DNA of 64,000 bases, from NCBI GenBank assembly GCA_964348795.1, contig CAYGDY010000005.1, positions 12,027 to 76,026 on the forward strand. The letters are read 5' to 3'. The translations under genes were made by a program, and so were the position numbers. Of this stretch, positions 2,866-50,661 are shown piece after piece (position 1 is the first letter of the stretch; every line of letters starts with the position of its first letter). Source of the DNA: an uncultured Pseudobdellovibrionaceae bacterium. Lineage in GTDB: Bacteria; Pseudomonadota; Alphaproteobacteria; Micavibrionales; Micavibrionaceae. The notes under the pieces were generated by a model, which made no database searches, had not been told where the DNA came from, and saw nothing but the letters and a program-made list of their open reading frames with translations.

Positions 2866-2909
2866 AAAGGGAGAGAGGGTTTGCTGTTACAGGTGTCTCC
2901 CTTTAAACA

Positions 2910-3143
2910 TCATACAGCCAGAATTTGCAAGACAGCATCCTGTTTTGGTACTTCTTTCCGAGAGACGCCTATTGTGAGGACCGCATCTTCTGCCGTGATC
3001 GGTGGAAGGCCTGCGGCTTCAAATTGCGCACTGTAGGTGCTTTCAAGGGCGCGCAGTTCCTGCGCGATGACGTCAGGCGCATCGTCTTTTTTGAAAATGA
3101 TTTCGCTGTTTTTAAAAAATTCCTGATTCAGACTCTGGCTCAT
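2910..3143 (-). CDS. hypothetical small protein
   Basis: 77-aa ORF that does not overlap a better gene. No motif recognised. Confidence 0.35.
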   Translation of the reverse strand: MSQSLNQEFFKNSEIIFKKDDAPDVIAQELRALESTYSAQFEAAGLPPITAEDAVLTIGVSRKEVPKQDAVLQILAV

Positions 3144-3242
3144 GTGAAGGGGCTCCCTGTTATTTTTGATAGTAATAGGGTATTATAGTGTATAAAAAAT
3201 GTCAAGATAATATTTTATGAAAATAAAATATTATCCCCTCCT

Positions 3243-3316
3243 GTCATTGCGAGCCATAGCGAAGCAATCTAGTTTTTTCTGGACTGCCACGGCTCCTTAC
3301 GGTGTCTCGCGATGAG
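3243..3316. repeat. MITE-like palindromic element, family A (degenerate right end)
   Basis: gtcattgcgagccatagcgaagcaatctag...ctggactgcc...ctcgcgatgag. Confidence 0.7.
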
Positions 3317-3333
3317 GAGAAGGGAGGATTGCT

Positions 3334-4044
3334 TTATGCTCTCTGGTTTTTTGCACTTAAAAAATAATTCACGGCGATATCGCGTTTGGAAAGGGTGAAA
3401 TCCCCTGTGCAGGGATTGAACATCAGTCCCGTGATATCAATAGGGGACAGGGCGCTGGTTCTGCACATACGGGAGAGCTCGGCAGGGGTAATGAATTTTT
3501 TCCAGCTATGTGTTCTACGCGGCACCCAGCGCAGGATATATTCCGCCGCAACAATCCCCAGTGCAAAGGATTTGGGCGTGCGGTTGAGAGTCGAGAAAAT
3601 CGCAAGGCCGTTCGGATTCAAGCGGTTTGCAATGGCCTGTACGAACGTGCGGATATCCGCGACATGTTCGACAATTTCCAGAGCCAGAACAATATCGTAG
3701 GTTTCTGTCAGGTCCTCGACTGCGCCGTGGATATAGGGGATGGACAGACCGGACTCTGCCGCATGGGATTGGGCCGTTTCAATGGCCACGGGATCGGCAT
3801 CGATTCCGGTGATGTGCGCGCCTAGTCGCGTCAAAGGCTCGCACACCAAGCCGCCGCCGCATCCGACATCAAGGATTTTCAATCCCTCCAGCGTAGCAAA
3901 ATGCTTCAGGATTTGAGCCTTGATATAGCCGATCCGCACCGGATTGAGGCGGTGCAGGGGTTTGAAAGGACCGTTTTCGTCCCACCACTGCGCAGAGTCT
4001 TTGGAAAAATGTTGAATTTCTTTTAGATCGACAGTATGTATCAT
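3334..4044 (-). CDS. ubiG: ubiquinone biosynthesis O-methyltransferase
   Basis: Start taken at MIHTVDLKEIQHFSKDSAQWWDENGPFKPLHRLNPVR (ATG 4044). SAM motif ILDVGCGGGLVCEPL. 236 aa. The longer ORF (to 4200) would overlap lysC. Confidence 0.9.
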   Translation of the reverse strand: MIHTVDLKEIQHFSKDSAQWWDENGPFKPLHRLNPVRIGYIKAQILKHFATLEGLKILDVGCGGGLVCEPLTRLGAHITGIDADPVAIETAQSHAAESGLSIPYIHGAVEDLTETYDIVLALEIVEHVADIRTFVQAIANRLNPNGLAIFSTLNRTPKSFALGIVAAEYILRWVPRRTHSWKKFITPAELSRMCRTSALSPIDITGLMFNPCTGDFTLSKRDIAVNYFLSAKNQRA

Positions 4045-45976: not shown

Positions 45977-46669
45977 TCATTGGTTCTGGGGGTACATAAA
46001 ATTTACCATCTCAATGGTGTGTGCAGATATTTCGGGAAGTTTTAGCCCTTCTTCCTCGAGACGGTCTTTGATTTCCCTGAATGTTTTTGTTCTTGGGCCT
46101 ATTTTGGGCATATGTTTTAAGGCATCCTCTGAAAACTGGAGCAGTTCTCCAATGGTTTCAATGCCGTTGGACCGCAGAGCGTTTTTGGTACGTTCTGTAA
46201 AGCCGAAATGTTTGACAGATAGGTCTTTGATGTCTTGTTTTTGCAAATCATCTTCTGTAACTGGGATCATGGGGCCAAATTGTCTGTAAGGCTCTCGGTG
46301 TCCTATAAACTCAACATCTGTGTTTTCTAGGTCAGCAATCATACAACGGGGCGTGGGGCCTTGTGTATTCACCGTTTGTGCAAAGGTGATAGAGAGTGTA
46401 TGGGCGGGATGTTTAAAGTTTCCATTGGGATGGACTTCTTGGGCCTCGACAGTTTGGGAGTTGTAAGGAGTACTTGGTTGCTCTGCCTGTGTGATTAAGA
46501 AAAATTTGTCTTTGAGCGAAGGGCCTGTATCACGAGAGAGATGCTCTTTTTTCAATAAAAAAAATTCGTTATCTCGCCATCCATCATTGCCCCTTATAAG
46601 TTCGGCTCCATGCGAATTTCCTATTTTGATCACATCGCCTTCTTTTAAAAAATCCTGCACCAGTTTCAT
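45977..46669 (-). CDS. hypothetical protein with C-terminal RNA polymerase alpha-CTD-like helix-hairpin-helix domain
   Basis: 230 aa. Residues about 147-212 (nt 46034-46231), [63 protein letters not shown], follow the RpoA CTD pattern L.LS.R..N.L...I.TIGEL......L....N.G.KS..EI...L...GL. The N-terminal 145 aa are unrecognised. AT-rich. Confidence 0.6.
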
Positions 46670-46776
46670 GGCCTTGCCCTTCTTTTTGGTATGGCTGGTA
46701 TATTAGACAGAAAACAATGGTTCTGTCAAATAAAATCTGCGTGACCTCTTCTCGCTTCCTTGCTAGAAAGGAAGCC

Positions 46777-48012
46777 ATGAATCAGACACACAGACGGATT
46801 GTGGTTACGGGGCTCGGGATTGTTTCCTGTATTGGAAATTCTGTGCCTGCGGTTTTGGAATCGTTACGCGCAGGGCGCTCGGGGATTACGTTTTCCCCCG
46901 AATACGCCGAGATGGGCTTTCGCTCCCATGTCTACGGGAGGCCGGATATCACCCTTGAAGACCACATCGACAAGCGTTTGTGGCGTTTTATGGGCGATTC
47001 TGCGGGCTATACGCATCTGGCGATGGAGCAGGCGATTGCAGATTCCGGCCTTGAGGAAAAAGATGTCGTGAATGAGCGCACGGGGATTATCATGGGCTCC
47101 GGCGGTCCCTCGACGCGGGCGCAGGTTCTGGCGGCGGATATTACGCGGGAAAAGGGGCCCAAACGCGTGGGGCCGTTTGCTGTGCCGAAATGTATGTCCT
47201 CCACCACGTCGGCTACGATTGCGACGAATTTCAAGATCAAGGGCGTGAATTATTCGATTTCCTCGGCCTGCTCGACCTCCGCGCATTGTATCGGCAACGC
47301 GGCGGAACAGATTTTGTTGGGCAAACAGGATGTCATGTTCGCGGGCGGGGGGGAGGAGCTGGACTGGACGCTTTCTGTCCTGTTTGACGCGATGGGCGCG
47401 ATGTCCTCTAAATACAATGATACGCCGGAGCGGTCTGCGCGCGCCTATGATGCGAATCGCGATGGTTTTGTGATTGCGGGCGGCGGCGCGGTTGTGGTGC
47501 TGGAGGAGCTGTCCCATGCCAGGGCGCGGGGCGCAAAGATTTATGCCGAACTCACGGGCTATGGTGCAACGTCTGACGGCGCGGATATGGTGGCCCCGAG
47601 CGGGGAGGGGGCTGTGCGGTGTATGCGTCAGGCGCTCTCTACCATTAAAACCCCCGTCACCTATATCAACACGCATGGCACGAGTACGCCTGTGGGCGAT
47701 ATGACGGAGCTGAACGCCATTCGGGAGGTTTTCGGTGCGCGCGAAGATAAGCCGTATATCAGTGCGACAAAATCCATGACGGGGCATTCCCTCGGCGCGA
47801 CGGGCGCGCAGGAGGCTATTTATTCTATCCTCATGATGCAGAACGATTTCGTTGCGCCGAGCATCAATGTCGAAACGCTGGACGAGGGCGCCGTTGGCAT
47901 GAATGTTGCGACCGCCCGCGTGGACGGGGTCAAGCACCAAACGGTGCTGTCCAATAGTTTTGGTTTCGGCGGCACGAATGCGACGCTGGCGTTGAGTAGG
48001 TTTGAGGGGTAG
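46777..48012 (+). CDS. fabB: beta-ketoacyl-ACP synthase I
   Basis: Start taken at [21 protein letters not shown] (ATG 46777). Active-site [21 protein letters not shown] and GHSLGATGA. Adjacent to fabA. Confidence 0.95.
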
Positions 48013-48027
48013 ATCGGGTTCAGTATG

Positions 48028-48097
48028 TCTCCAAAACTCCGAGTCTCCGCTTGAATTTTTTGGGGTTTGTTTTAAGCGGAGTTTAGGAGATACGGAG
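48028..48097. repeat. Cassette junction J0: L-arm (3x CTCC at 8-nt phase), 17-nt spacer, R-arm (3x GGAG at 8-nt phase)
   Basis: tCTCCaaaaCTCCgagtCTCCgcttga / attttttggggtttgtt / ttaagcGGAGtttaGGAGatacGGAG. Confidence 0.8.
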
Positions 48098-48122
48098 TTT
48101 TTTGTAGGAGCGGGCTGTAAAA

Positions 48123-48239
48123 ATGAAAATCGGAGAAATTGTTAAGATCCATATACCTGAAATTATTCGGTATTGTGAAGAAGTTGATCCACAGGAGTTT
48201 ATTCGTTTTAAAACTCCAAAACTCCGAGTCTCCGCTTGA
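48123..48239 (+). CDS. 38-aa ORF inside the tandem unit (copy 1), coding status doubtful
   Basis: MKIGEIVKIHIPEIIRYCEEVDPQEFIRFKTPKLRVSA*. The last 9 codons and the stop lie in the L-arm. Could be a gene fragment. Confidence 0.2.
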   Translation: MKIGEIVKIHIPEIIRYCEEVDPQEFIRFKTPKLRVSA

Positions 48240-48282
48240 ATTTTTTGGGGTTTGTTTTAAGCGGAGTTTAGGAGATACGGAG
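48210..48282. repeat. Cassette junction J1 (L-arm, spacer, R-arm)
   Basis: Identical to J0 apart from the extended 5' aaaactcc. Confidence 0.8.
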
Positions 48283-48307
48283 TTTTTTGTAGGAGCGGGC
48301 TGTAAAA

Positions 48308-48424
48308 ATGAAAATCGGAGAAATTGTTAAGATCCATATACCTGAAATTATTCGGTATTGTGAAGAAGTTGATCCACAGGAGTTTATTCGTTTTAAAACT
48401 CCAAAACTCCGAGTCTCCGCTTGA
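48308..48424 (+). CDS. 38-aa ORF inside the tandem unit (copy 2), coding status doubtful
   Basis: Identical to 48123..48239. Confidence 0.2.
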   Translation: MKIGEIVKIHIPEIIRYCEEVDPQEFIRFKTPKLRVSA

Positions 48425-48467
48425 ATTTTTTGGGGTTTGTTTTAAGCGGAGTTTAGGAGATACGGAG
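48395..48467. repeat. Cassette junction J2 (L-arm, spacer, R-arm)
   Basis: Identical to J1. The last GGAG(G) of the R-arm sits 7 nt upstream of the GxxExxY ATG and can serve as its Shine-Dalgarno. Confidence 0.8.
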
Positions 48468-48475
48468 GTTTTTAT

Positions 48476-48907
48476 ATGGCACTTTTGAAACAGCATTCTG
48501 ATTTTCCAGACTCTTTGAATGTTTTAACGGGCGAAGTGATGGATTGTTTTTATCAAGTTCATCAGGAGTTGGGTGCCGGTTATACTGAAAATATTTATGA
48601 GGAAGCCTGTTGTATTGAGTTTCAGAGGAAGGGGCTTTCTTTTGAAAAACAGAAATCTATACCGATTTTTTATAAGGGAGAGGTACTGAATAACAATTTC
48701 AGACTAGACCTTGTTGTAGAAAATGAAATTTTGATTGAATTGAAAGCCGTAGAACATGTTTTACCTGTTCATCAGGCGCAAATATATTCTTATCTTAAGG
48801 CCACAAAATACCCGATTGGCTTTTTAGTGAATTTCAATGTGTCGTTGATTAAAGAGGGCGTAAGACGCTACGTGAATAAAACTCCGAAACTTCAAAACTC
48901 CGCTTGA
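48476..48907 (+). CDS. GxxExxY protein (PD-(D/E)XK nuclease-fold family)
   Basis: 143 aa. GYTENIY (GxxExxY) motif and a D...E.K-like block RLDLVVENEILIELKAV. AT-rich. The C-terminal KTPKLQNSA* is encoded by the L-arm repeat. Confidence 0.8.
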   Translation: MALLKQHSDFPDSLNVLTGEVMDCFYQVHQELGAGYTENIYEEACCIEFQRKGLSFEKQKSIPIFYKGEVLNNNFRLDLVVENEILIELKAVEHVLPVHQAQIYSYLKATKYPIGFLVNFNVSLIKEGVRRYVNKTPKLQNSA

Positions 48908-48949
48908 GTTTTTAATATGGCATTAAAGCGGAGCTTGGGAGATACGGAG
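48878..48949. repeat. Cassette junction J3 (diverged L-arm, 15-nt spacer, R-arm)
   Basis: aaaaCTCCgaaaCTTCaaaaCTCCgcttga / gtttttaatatggca / ttaaagcGGAGcttgGGAGatacGGAG. Confidence 0.75.
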
Positions 48950-49058
48950 GTTTTTTGCTCCCAGATCAAAAGAAGCGCCCTGTAGGCTCTATAAAATTTT
49001 TTATAATTGTTTTAGATATTGATGGATAAGAAAAAATGTTGGGTTGTGATATGAATTT

Positions 49059-49084
49059 CTCCGAATCTCCAAAACTCCGCTTAA
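49059..49084. repeat. Terminal L-arm J4 (no partner R-arm), abutting the fabI RBS
   Basis: CTCCgaatCTCCaaaaCTCCgcttaa. Its reverse complement ttaagcGGAGttttGGAGattcGGAG matches the R-arm at 24 of 26 positions. Confidence 0.8.
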
Positions 49085-49104
49085 AAAAATAAAGGTAAAA
49101 TAAA

Positions 49105-49911
49105 ATGCAACTGATGAACAATAAAAAAGGGCTTATCATGGGGGTGGCGAATGACCACTCCATCGCGTGGGGGATGGCGCAGGCGTTGCATGGCGCGGGG
49201 GCGGAGTTGGCCTTTACGTATCAGGGCGAGGCGTTCGGCAAGCGCGTGAAGCCGCTCGCCGCGTCTTTGGGCTCGGATTTTCTGATTGATTGTGATGTTA
49301 CCTCGGAAGAGGATCTGGACAAGGTGTTTGCCGAAATCGAACAGCGTTGGGGCGTGCTGGATTTTGTGGTCCATGCCATTGCCTATTCGGACAAGAACGA
49401 GCTTCAGGGGCGGTATGTTGACACGACGCTGGCCAATTTCCTGCAGACCATGCATATTTCCTGTTATTCCTTTACTTCTGTCATGCGCCGCGCCCGTCCC
49501 TTGATGAAGCGGGGGGGCTCTGCGGTCACGCTGTCCTATTTCGGGGCGGAGAAGGTTATGCCCAATTACAACGTGATGGGCGTGGCGAAGTCTGCGCTGG
49601 AGGCCTCTGTGCGGTATCTGGCGGCGGATCTGGGGCCCGAGGGTATCCGTGTGAATGCGATCAGTGCGGGACCGATGCGCACGCTTGCGGGGGCCGTCAT
49701 TGGGGGCGCACGGAAAACATTCAAATATAACACGATCACCGCGCCTCTGCGCCGCTCGGTCGAGTTAGAGGAGCTGGGCGGGACGGGATTATACTTGCTC
49801 TCGGACATGTCATCCGCCGTGACGGGCGAAGTGCACTACGTGGATTGCGGGTATAATATCATGGGCATGCCCGCCCATGACCAGCTCGATGAATTTGGTA
49901 AGGGCGGGTAA
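49105..49911 (+). CDS. fabI: enoyl-ACP reductase (NADH) FabI
   Basis: 268 aa. KKGLIMGVANDHSIAWG N-terminus and the Y..M...K catalytic region (SYFGAEKVMPNYNVMGVAKSALEA). Confidence 0.95.
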   Translation: MQLMNNKKGLIMGVANDHSIAWGMAQALHGAGAELAFTYQGEAFGKRVKPLAASLGSDFLIDCDVTSEEDLDKVFAEIEQRWGVLDFVVHAIAYSDKNELQGRYVDTTLANFLQTMHISCYSFTSVMRRARPLMKRGGSAVTLSYFGAEKVMPNYNVMGVAKSALEASVRYLAADLGPEGIRVNAISAGPMRTLAGAVIGGARKTFKYNTITAPLRRSVELEELGGTGLYLLSDMSSAVTGEVHYVDCGYNIMGMPAHDQLDEFGKGG

Positions 49912-49926: not shown

Positions 49927-50277
49927 CTAGGCGTAGAGCTCAGCCCCAGTAAATTCTTTTTTGCAACCCTTTGAACGCTCCAAAACAATGCGGGCGGCGT
50001 CATAGCTGTCTTCCAGCATCAGTTTAAATTTCTCGCTGTCTTGAGGGATGTTGAGGTTGTATTGATCGATTTGTCTTTTAAGGAAAAGGGCTGTCAGGGG
50101 GCCCTTTAAGGTGAGGTTCTCGACAGCATCATTCCATGTCTTTTGAAGGGAGTTTGATTTCAAATTATTCATCTCTTCAATCGTAATATCGTCAAAAGAT
50201 AAAATCAAATCTCTGGTCTCTGCGATGCAGAGTTCTTCTTTAATTGTTGATACAGGTTTTGTTGTTGCAAGAGACAT
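49927..50277 (-). CDS. hypothetical protein (orphan)
   Basis: 116-aa ORF, AT-rich, 12-nt gap to the upstream ORF on the same strand. No motif recognised. Confidence 0.4.
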   Translation of the reverse strand: MSLATTKPVSTIKEELCIAETRDLILSFDDITIEEMNNLKSNSLQKTWNDAVENLTLKGPLTALFLKRQIDQYNLNIPQDSEKFKLMLEDSYDAARIVLERSKGCKKEFTGAELYA

Positions 50278-50289
50278 GTGTTCTTTCCT

Positions 50290-50661
50290 TTATAAAGAGG
50301 CGGTTTGAGGTTCAAAAACGGTGTTATCATGCGATAGGCCTTGCAAAGGCACAGAATGCGGCGCATGGGACACAACCACCCGCGCAGACTCAAACACAGC
50401 GCGAAGCATGGCGGTATGTTCGGTAGCATCCCGATAGCGTCCCTTCATCGCAATGGCAAGGGTCGATACAATATCGTTATGGGCGTTAAATTGCCCTCGG
50501 ACACCAGAGCCTGTAGTCTGAATAGTGGAAATTTGCTCCAGTTTTTCTTCCGGTGTGCCCTTAAGTCTGCCTAAAAGGCTCTCCCTGCCGAGGGCGACAG
50601 CGTAGTGTTTTAAAATATCGTTGGAGTCTTCTAATACGATTGTACCGTCTTTAAAAGCCAT
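50290..50661 (-). CDS. hypothetical protein (orphan)
   Basis: 123-aa ORF with ggagat 7 nt upstream of the ATG. No motif recognised. Confidence 0.45.
   Translation of the reverse strand: MAFKDGTIVLEDSNDILKHYAVALGRESLLGRLKGTPEEKLEQISTIQTTGSGVRGQFNAHNDIVSTLAIAMKGRYRDATEHTAMLRAVFESARVVVSHAPHSVPLQGLSHDNTVFEPQTASL

Follow-up and report, generated by a model that had tools for sequence, protein, structure and literature searches.

Short repeats that flank a single small enzyme gene in inverted orientation characterize repetitive extragenic palindromic (REP) elements of bacteria, their inverted doublets (REPINs), the REP-associated tyrosine transposases (RAYTs) and the arrays termed bacterial interspersed mosaic elements (BIMEs), as outlined in excerpts of three descriptions (PMC3116915, PMC3337134, PMC2817692). 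The individual REP repeat is specified, in an excerpt of a further source, as an imperfect palindrome of 20–40 bp with a GTAG or CGTC tag (PMC3733652). Here we have analysed a locus within a stretch of 64,000 nucleotides of contig CAYGDY010000005.1, referred to as the window, where the 1,092-bp spacer between the genes fabB and fabI (48013–49104) harbors phased repeats, designated R-arms and, in the opposite orientation, L-arms. The spacer probably represents a cluster in which small insertion modules belong to a single family, with a nuclease that would serve their arms. Its complete module, located at 48442–48908, comprises an R-arm, a gene encoding a GxxExxY PD-(D/E)XK nuclease and an L-arm, while the other members of the array are an [R..116 nt..L] unit in exact tandem duplicate, an [R..109 nt..L] unit and one solo L-arm. 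Discrete modules of this kind, which usually carry the nuclease gene, are found at unrelated genomic sites, and the arms form their conserved ends.

The REP/REPIN-RAYT system with its BIME arrays is functionally the closest of the known systems, but the modules are no member of it. Shared features include the single small enzyme gene enclosed by inverted copies of a short repeat, the occurrence of geneless inverted doublets elsewhere in intergenic DNA (both R..L and L..R, in many genomes) and the absence of target duplication. BIMEs are further resembled in the alternating orientation of the arms, the alternation of short and long linkers and the growth in tandem, as found in a 185-bp unit of the window and in a 15-copy array at another locus (L045). 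The differences concern the enzyme, which is an HUH/Y1 IS200-like transposase in case of the RAYTs and a PD-(D/E)XK nuclease of about 125 residues in the modules, and the repeat, which is not a palindrome but consists of three direct units in 8–9-nt phase with a TTnAMGC outer end. Moreover, REPINs reach tens to hundreds of copies per genome, whereas the arm copy number is low in the 64-kb window and in 100 kb of Sphingomonas parapaucimobilis. Finally, a further contrast to REPINs is that the modules are GC-poor and placed within operons, suggesting that they arrived horizontally and have not resided vertically in their lineages for long.

Arrangement of arms and modules in the fabB-fabI spacer

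With a GC content of 36.6%, the spacer differs from fabB (46717–48012, plus strand, 57.6%) and fabI (49105–49911, plus strand, 57.9%), the host genes upstream and downstream of the insertion site. When the window was searched for the pattern GGAG-N4-GGAG-N4-GGAG with at most one mismatch, we found nine matches, all confined to 48029–49078, compared to a chance expectation of 0.29 and a maximum of two in 100 shuffles. Four matches on the plus strand define the R-arms (motifs at 48078, 48263, 48448 and 48930) and five on the minus strand the L-arms (48029, 48214, 48399, 48882 and 49059). A looser scan of the 64 kb with three RRAG units recovered the same nine arms only, at this one locus.

The array starts 16 nt past the fabB stop codon, which ends at 48012, with the solo L-arm 1 (48029–48055, CTCCaaaaCTCCgagtCTCCGCTTGAA). 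It is followed by a 16-nt spacer, R-arm 1 (48072–48097, TTAAGCGGAGtttaGGAGatacGGAG), a geneless interior of 116 nt (48098–48213) that contains most of an open reading frame (ORF) of 38 codons (48123–48239), and L-arm 2 (48214–48240), which closes the first copy of this module. After another spacer, R-arm 2 (48257–48282), an identical 116-nt interior and L-arm 3 (48399–48425) constitute its second copy. A further spacer leads to R-arm 3 (48442–48467), the left end of the complete module, whose last GGAG is located 8 nt ahead of the start codon of the GxxExxY gene (48476–48907, plus strand, 143 residues), and the final nine codons of this gene together with its stop codon are part of L-arm 4 (48882–48908, CTCCgaaaCTTCaaaaCTCCGCTTGAG), the right end of the module. 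Beyond a 15-nt spacer, R-arm 4 (48924–48949, TAAAGCGGAGcttgGGAGatacGGAG), a 109-nt interior without any ORF (48950–49058) and L-arm 5 (49059–49084, CTCCgaatCTCCaaaaCTCCGCTTAA) complete the array, with 20 nt remaining to the start codon of fabI at 49105. L-arm 5 matches the reverse complement of R-arm 1 at 24 of 26 positions. This layout, with its coordinates and arm sequences, had been proposed in a first, sequence-only reading of the locus and was reproduced when we re-checked every arm, spacer and interior.

The same reading had counted two separate units with 38-residue ORFs. Both are present; since 48029–48213 and 48214–48398 are identical at every position, they constitute one 185-bp unit (L-arm, 16-nt spacer, R-arm and interior) that is duplicated exactly in tandem (48029–48398). 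A second, independent assembly of this DNA (Logan contig L001) ends inside R-arm 3, and the number of 185-bp units is thus uncertain. The repeat therefore reflects either a recent duplication or an assembly estimate of uncertain copy number, and not two separate events. Neither the 38-residue ORF nor the two geneless interiors have a relative among any of the sequences fetched, and nothing supports this ORF as a real gene. We also considered the geneless interiors as deletion derivatives of the GxxExxY gene, which was rejected as they show no similarity to it.

The arms contribute to the reading frames of the array. The Shine-Dalgarno sequence coincides with the final GGAG of the R-arm, and the last codons and the stop codon of each array ORF are provided by an L-arm (..KTPKLRVSA and ..KTPKLQNSA, each followed by stop). 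A terminator scan of 48013–49104 detected no terminator-like site and the array contains neither promoter nor terminator, which suggests that it would be expressed by operon read-through. The solo L-arm 1 continues in frame with fabB past its TAG stop codon (48010–48054, TAG-I-G-F-S-M-S-P-K-L-R-V-S-A-TGA).

The GxxExxY gene and its arms in other genomes

The 143-residue protein scores far above threshold against PF13366 (E=8.5e-41, 139.4 bits, cut-off 22) and TIGR04256 (E=1.6e-41, 141.4 bits, cut-off 35), the sole matches in Pfam and NCBIfam, and no recognised transposase class is encoded in the element. It is, as judged from these profiles, a GxxExxY/PDDEXK_3 protein of the PD-(D/E)XK nuclease fold with predicted nuclease activity. 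Residues G35, E38, Y41, D78, E88 and K90, which are invariant or nearly so in an alignment of 45 sequences, are all intact. A confident AlphaFold2 model (predicted local distance difference test score 89.5) retrieved PD-(D/E)XK nucleases alone, including Cas4 SSO0001, lambda exonuclease, tRNA-splicing endonuclease and EcoRV, with matches that are all weak (best E 6e-3) and too generic to name a specific enzymatic analogue. A sequence search of the PDB returned no match. There was equally no match for the protein in PADLOC and PHROGs, which leaves an origin from a defence system or a phage unsupported, and the family is nearly absent from viral contigs (2 matches). In total, the family comprises 14,068 clusters at 50% identity (E<=1e-10). 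Our literature search, which covered few subscription journals, found no study of GxxExxY function.

Many top-scoring members of the family (P0242–P0252 and about 30 more) are 260–295 residues long and contain a tandem pair of GxxExxY domains with a non-repetitive linker between them, of which the second domain looks divergent around the ExK motif. Such fusions may constitute a covalent pseudo-dimer, and their frequency suggests a dimeric enzyme. Peculiar tails are found at the termini of other homologues, with LRNSASPR, NSASPDLRV and NLRNFVTSR at the C-terminus of the closest ones and TTESTEGTE at the N-terminus or SVPSVVKNS at the C-terminus of more distant ones. As checked in the fetched DNA, these tails are translated phased CTCCG/CGGAG repeats.

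The family-wide occurrence of arms was investigated in 80 retrieved metagenome loci that encode relatives of the nuclease at 38–49% identity. A strict arm pattern, defined by three [CGA][GA][CG]N[GA]AG units spaced 1–3 nt apart and located at most 400 nt from the gene, is found near 68 of 84 GxxExxY genes, in 31 cases in the order R-gene-L and in 24 more in an arrangement compatible with it. When the 5' flank of a gene was compared with its own 3' flank, an inverted repeat (score >=12) was present at 58 of 78 loci, compared to 17 of 234 mismatched flank pairs. The sequence of the unit varies by locus (CGCGGAG, CACAGAG, CACGAAG, CGCCAAG, CGCCGAG, CACCAAG and others), while both arms of one locus agree in its type (such as GGAG/CTCC, GAAG/CTTC or CCAAG/CTTGG), and the type weakly tracks protein similarity (permutation p<0.0005). 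The resulting consensus contains three CRCNRAG units with a period of 8–9 nt, inverted on the far side of the gene, with position 4 of the unit free in both arms and an outer end of the sequence T-T-T/C-A-C/A (TTnAMGC-type). In the lineage of the window, CRCN has drifted to a free N4 whereas RRAG, the phase and the outer TTAAGC/TTACGC remain; in comparison to L004 and L002 the GGAG tetramers are kept and every N4 spacer differs.

At three loci with homologues of the nuclease, the GxxExxY gene is located between fabB and fabI (L004), between pdhB and pdhC (L002) and between pdhA and pdhB (L005), in all three cases preceded by TT(T)ACGC-GGAG-N4-GGAG-N4-GGAG and followed by an inverted copy; in L005, one arm carries GAAG units and the opposite arm CTTC. 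Sphingomonads carry the module between fabD and fabG (L201, and L207 from the complete S. parapaucimobilis YK209 record); the arms of L201 are mainly of the GGAG-type, with an R-arm that mixes GGAG and GAAG units, and those of L207 are of the GAAG-type. The design recurs in dozens of independent assemblies, one complete genome among them, with occasional variation such as R-R-R-gene-L in L024. The record that contains L207, L217 and L218 (NZ_CP155749.1) is annotated as the 880-kb 'plasmid unnamed1' of S. parapaucimobilis YK209; its gene content, which includes the fab operon, genes for ribosomal proteins, dnaE, recA and alaS, is chromosomal. At L045, a 15-copy array of a 37-nt L-arm-like unit (2898–3460) directly follows the GxxExxY gene, which is preceded by two R-type unit copies (2290–2367), showing that arms can expand into minisatellites.

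Discrete boundaries are most evident in three loci (L043, L064 and L026) that share a whole R-gene-L module at 82%, 70% and 71% nucleotide identity between unrelated flanks. The contexts of L043 and L064 are a response-regulator/histidine-kinase (two-component) operon and carbamoyltransferase genes, and the homology of the three modules starts at TT(T/C)ACCGC and stops at GCGGT(A/G)A, the outer ends of the arms. Between L043 and L064, non-synonymous and synonymous divergence amount to 0.094 and 0.98 (dN/dS of about 0.1), and the arms are 88–91% identical while 55% of the synonymous sites differ. In comparison to L026, where synonymous differences are saturated at 81% of sites, the arm units still align and are largely identical. 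Gene and arms are under purifying selection. Conversely, orthologous flanks can enclose far more diverged modules (L010/L067 and L014/L035).

Of the two readings that had been offered from the sequence alone, these data sustain a small element bounded by terminal inverted repeats: modules occur singly as R-gene-L, RL is the commonest pairing of neighbouring arms, and homology between related modules in unrelated contexts is bounded by the arms' outer ends. The TTAA/TGAA that had been regarded as a boundary feature turned out to be the outer part of the inverted repeat. We found no target-site duplication, as direct repeats at the ends of 89 R..L pairs equal those of a shuffled-partner control. 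The modules resemble insertion sequences and miniature inverted-repeat transposable elements in having terminal inverted repeats of about 26–35 bp that bracket a single enzyme gene, short geneless derivatives with the same ends and discrete boundaries between related copies. They differ from them in the missing target-site duplication, in the absence of a DDE, HUH, serine or tyrosine recombinase from the module, in ends that consist of three phased sub-repeats and in geneless interiors that are unrelated to the gene. There is also no recombinase as recurrent neighbour of the module (beside L002, L004, L005 and L207).

Arms without a gene are widespread. By scanning a single genome from each species for AMGCGGAG-N4-GGAG-N4-GGAG, we obtained at least 120 matching loci. 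The arms occur in relatives and in many phyla; a restriction to this genome would have refuted the sequence-only reading. Among the matches listed are Sphingomonas, Novosphingobium, Sphingobium, Parvibaculum, Rhizomicrobium, Bryobacteraceae/Solibacter, Pyrinomonadaceae, Planctomycetes, Verrucomicrobia, Gemmatimonadetes and cyanobacteria. In about 40 of the 120 loci listed, an R-arm is followed by an L-arm within 15–250 nt, and such geneless R..L palindromes are known from Sphingomonadales, Acidobacteria, Planctomycetes and other groups, with the consensus TTCACGCGGAG[AG]CGCGGAG[AG]CGCGGAG ... inverted. Some are nested or interleaved with sister types bearing CAGAG, CGAAG or CCAAG units, several arm loci occur per 8 kb in L138, L131, L172 and L198, and the geneless copies are placed between genes in various orientations. 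Over 205 loci, adjacent arms form 95 RL, 29 RR, 27 LR and 21 LL pairs. The RL gaps fall into classes of at most 60 nt, 61–250 nt and a gene-sized class of 251–700 nt, nearly all of which contain GxxExxY; between the arms there is either this gene or nothing, and no diverse cargo. A BLAST search of plasmids for arm copies gave few matches, with a low-complexity filter that limits short repetitive queries. Some matches to the arm pattern (L180 6771–7160, L106 4752–5056, L087 7–90 and L202 8–107) are long octamer microsatellites that appear to be unrelated to the modules; their GGAG-octamer arrays contain tens of copies, and L106 and L087 stem from metagenome-assembled genomes (MAGs) of a cyanobacterium and of Chloroflexota.

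At the fabB-fabI locus itself, gain or loss of content, which had been raised as a prospect by the sequence-only reading, is evident among close relatives. The nearest named FabI relatives of the window are MAGs labelled Alphaproteobacteria and Micavibrio. The gap is empty in L211 (0 nt), L212 and L213 (23 nt) and L215 and L216 (4 nt), while L004 contains a single module and encodes proteins with 82% (FabI), 75% (FabB) and only 59% (nuclease) identity to the window. In the closest relative (L206, in the same 90% FabI cluster), a different palindrome with an ORFan of 122 residues and without arms takes its place. Inserts are 10–18 GC points below the neighbouring host genes and modules sit right after a stop codon in tight co-directional operon gaps, with both neighbours co-oriented with the nuclease gene at 33 loci and both opposed at three. 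The top-scoring FabI match (L210) was dropped as a GC-rich chimeric or duplicated gene.

Proposed mechanism and competing explanations

In the mechanism that we propose, the module would be expressed by read-through from its host operon, using a Shine-Dalgarno sequence that forms part of the R-arm or adjoins it. The nuclease would bind the phased units of both arms as a multimer and cut at or near their outer ends, upon which the module would be copied or moved. Geneless copies would be mobilised in trans, parallel to the RAYTs that serve REP/REPIN repeats. Growth of the arrays would result from insertions next to one another and, comparable to BIMEs, from slippage or unequal recombination between arms.

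Several observations weigh against this account. Co-inheritance alone could give the association of arms and nuclease, and we know of no stand-alone PD-(D/E)XK transposase of this size. The 8–9-bp phase of the units differs from the helical repeat of DNA. A GxxExxY gene is found within 8 kb in just two of the 120 arm-pattern loci listed, there are no strict arms in 100 kb around the S. parapaucimobilis gene, and copy number is low, with one arm locus in the window. The genes of L010, L012 and L058 are located outside of arms, between two short R-loop-L palindromes, and solo L-spacer-R palindromes resembling the junctions of the window are found at L089, L094 and L189. At L138 (370–633), three arm types are interleaved and not nested, in the order R(GGAG) R(CAGAG) R(CGAAG) ... 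L(CAGAG) L(CGAAG) L(GGAG), an order that is not explained by a simple insertion of one module into another. Finally, the same gaps are filled in different lineages (fabB/fabI, fabD/fabG and pdh), which fits site-specific homing at least as well as transposition.

The latter points to a selfish gene of the homing-endonuclease type, where GxxExxY would cut the empty intergenic target of an uninvaded allele and be copied into it by recombinational repair. Instead of recognition sites, the arms would be an insulator or an expression signal borne by the module, and geneless R..L copies would be decayed remnants. As in the free-standing homing endonuclease genes of T4-like phages, conserved essential genes enclose a small co-directional nuclease gene, relatives contain empty sites (here L211, L212 and L215, which are closer relatives with an empty fabB/fabI gap), target duplication is absent and the gene diverges faster than its neighbours, as seen for the window and L004 and for the strongly diverged modules between orthologous flanks of L010/L067 and L014/L035. 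Homing endonucleases of the PD-(D/E)XK fold do exist, as exemplified by I-Ssp6803I, and reoccupation of the same gap is also found for fabD/fabG, which in L201 and L207 is filled with modules of different unit types, and for the pdh operon in L002 and L005. We nevertheless regard this explanation as unlikely, since homing genes lack conserved inverted arms and geneless palindromic derivatives. Here, arm conservation extends well beyond the neutral expectation, and geneless copies with near-perfect arms at many loci, whose interiors are unrelated to the gene, are not predicted by a homing cycle. One module family resides in three unrelated operons, and the target would thus not be one single conserved site; the scarcity of the family in viral contigs is a further difference.

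The hairpin potential of the locus, which had been noted from the sequence, invites an explanation on the level of RNA. The L-spacer-R segment is predicted to fold as an imperfect hairpin (–27.4 kcal/mol, z –3.6 versus shuffled sequences) and R..L pairs reach z-values of –2.7 to –2.9. A stem between R and L, or between L and the next R, in the operon transcript might be processed like the RNase III excision of rRNA intervening sequences and Correia elements, or might control translation by engaging the Shine-Dalgarno GGAG with CUCC; the insert would become less costly in this way, with the nuclease gene as mere cargo. The Correia elements of Neisseria and the intervening sequences of Leptospira 23S rRNA are likewise short, bounded by inverted repeats, co-transcribed and capable of long RNA stems, although the arms show no sign of constraint at the RNA level and the ORF family differs. 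Some rRNA intervening sequences carry a small ORF, as stated in a brief CDD note on proteins encoded in those of 23S rRNA. The strong co-orientation of modules with host operons, the use of the window's last GGAG as Shine-Dalgarno sequence, the stop codon in the L-arm and the lack of promoter and terminator would all fit such a role. It is rendered rather improbable by the mismatches between paired arms, which in the sense strand of 59 modules are as often of the G.U-type as of the A.C-type (48 versus 48) and thus show no wobble bias. In the lineage of the window, the N4 spacers of one arm do not pair with those of the other, which leaves helices of 4 bp only, and both arms leave unit position 4 unconstrained. 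Geneless copies lie between genes in various orientations, and neither the array nor nine related loci match an Rfam family, with miRNA hairpin models giving nothing but chance hits below threshold. The idea that arms are generally Shine-Dalgarno repeats was rejected, as many unit types (CCAAG, CACCAAG) do not resemble such a sequence. Conserved units, drifting spacers and the equal mismatch classes together point to a constraint at the level of DNA and not of RNA pairing. That the 8-nt phasing may mark an array bound by a multimeric protein, as suggested in the sequence-only reading, agrees with the conservation of units next to drifting spacers. The same hairpin had suggested the second reading from the sequence, by which L-spacer-R would be an attC-type single-stranded site acted upon by a recombinase in trans, separating promoterless cassettes as in integrons. 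The parallels are promoterless ORFs in one orientation with imperfect hairpin-forming inverted repeats between them, unpaired 4x4 loops in the hairpin and gene content that varies between relatives. We consider this reading very improbable, as the repeat halves flank the gene (R..gene..L) instead of following it, and lone modules (L002, L004, L005, L201 and L207) have R upstream and L downstream of the gene and no L-spacer-R site. The recurrent cargo is one gene family or nothing, and other inserts of this gap (L206 and L214) lack arms. There is no integrase or attI at the locus and no integrase beside any locus examined, with the window beyond the neighbouring genes not scanned protein by protein. 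As stated in the sequence-only reading, a GTTRRRY core is absent from every arm boundary, its spacer copies at 48568 and 49038 lying inside interiors. It is scarcely credible that ordinary intrinsic terminators or structures due to chance account for the arms, in an array that is partly an assembly artefact, despite a T run 3' of each of R-arms 1–4, the exactly repeated 185-bp unit and the break of the other assembly inside R-arm 3. The scan revealed no terminator, the inner flank of the R-arm is A-rich rather than T-rich in the wider family, nine arms exceed the expected 0.29, and the same architecture recurs in independent assemblies; an artefact could touch only the number of 185-bp units.

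Returning to insertion modules whose arms would be served by their nuclease, our findings tie a large family, whose members are named by NCBI in thousands of genomes, to a precise cis-architecture of phased, inverted and selected arms and to a lifestyle as compact promoterless modules in fatty-acid and pyruvate-dehydrogenase operons with geneless derivatives. They provide a testable hypothesis for the role of the protein, which would bind its own arms and cleave them, and the translation of arms explains the repetitive N- and C-terminal tails of many annotated GxxExxY proteins (..SASPRLRV, TESTEGTE..). Arms should equally be kept in mind as an origin of spurious small ORFs and of breaks in assemblies. 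The module family would be a repeat-plus-nuclease selfish module, with a substantial chance of being a new class of mobile element. The cross-phylum family is apparently undescribed in the literature searched, in agreement with the earlier impression that no element of this architecture had been described; an earlier description may exist, as few subscription journals were covered. In a bolder version, which we advance tentatively and hold to be somewhat short of even odds, a nuclease of about 125 residues would recognise three phased 8–9-nt units at both ends of its own module and mobilise module and geneless palindromes without target duplication into essential-operon gaps across many phyla, as a non-RAYT counterpart of REPINs in which the variable dinucleotide of the unit acts as co-evolving specificity code. 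If the nuclease were indeed the mobilising enzyme, bacterial transposition would gain a new enzyme class, whose code for DNA recognition is short, modular and apparently re-programmable.

Other insertions around fabB and fabI

The genes around the array are fabA, an ORF resembling the C-terminal domain of RpoA, fabB, fabI, two ORFans and a GDPD gene. Different inserts occupy the fabB-fabI gap in other genomes. The palindrome family of L206 (4772–5236), which occurs together with a hydrophobic ORFan of 122 residues, has the sequence GTCATTCTGAGCGGAGCGAAGAATC...GATCCTTCAGCTTCGCTTCAGGATGAC, and similar GTCAT..CGAGCG../GTCATCCCGG.. palindromes are nested inside R..L interiors elsewhere, in the loops of L151, L185 and L192. 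In L214 (2116–2496), the gap holds an ORF of 126 residues with an LprI domain (PF07007) and a GC content of 38%, which is separated by 4 nt on either side and carries no arms, showing that the gap accepts several unrelated small genes. The TAGAT at and just after the fabB stop codon of the window (5 nt) matches the empty-site sequence of L211, and the first fabI codons differ among the window, L004, L206 and relatives with an empty site, as if insertions had remodelled the fabI start.

The gap between fabA and fabB is filled in the window by an AT-rich ORF of 230 residues on the minus strand (45977–46669, about 43% GC) with a helix-hairpin-helix region that resembles the C-terminal domain of the RNA polymerase alpha subunit (PF03118, E=3.4e-11), and a promoter-like site (10 of 12 matches) is located next to it on the same strand (46729–46700). 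As the fabA-fabB gap measures just 8–38 nt in L212 and L215, this ORF constitutes a further insertion in the operon. The region from fabI to the GDPD gene (49927–50661, minus strand) contains two AT-rich ORFans of 116 and 123 residues without family match, and the same position holds different small ORFs or none in L212, L215 and L216. The lineage of the window appears to collect GC-poor ORFans in many gaps between core genes.

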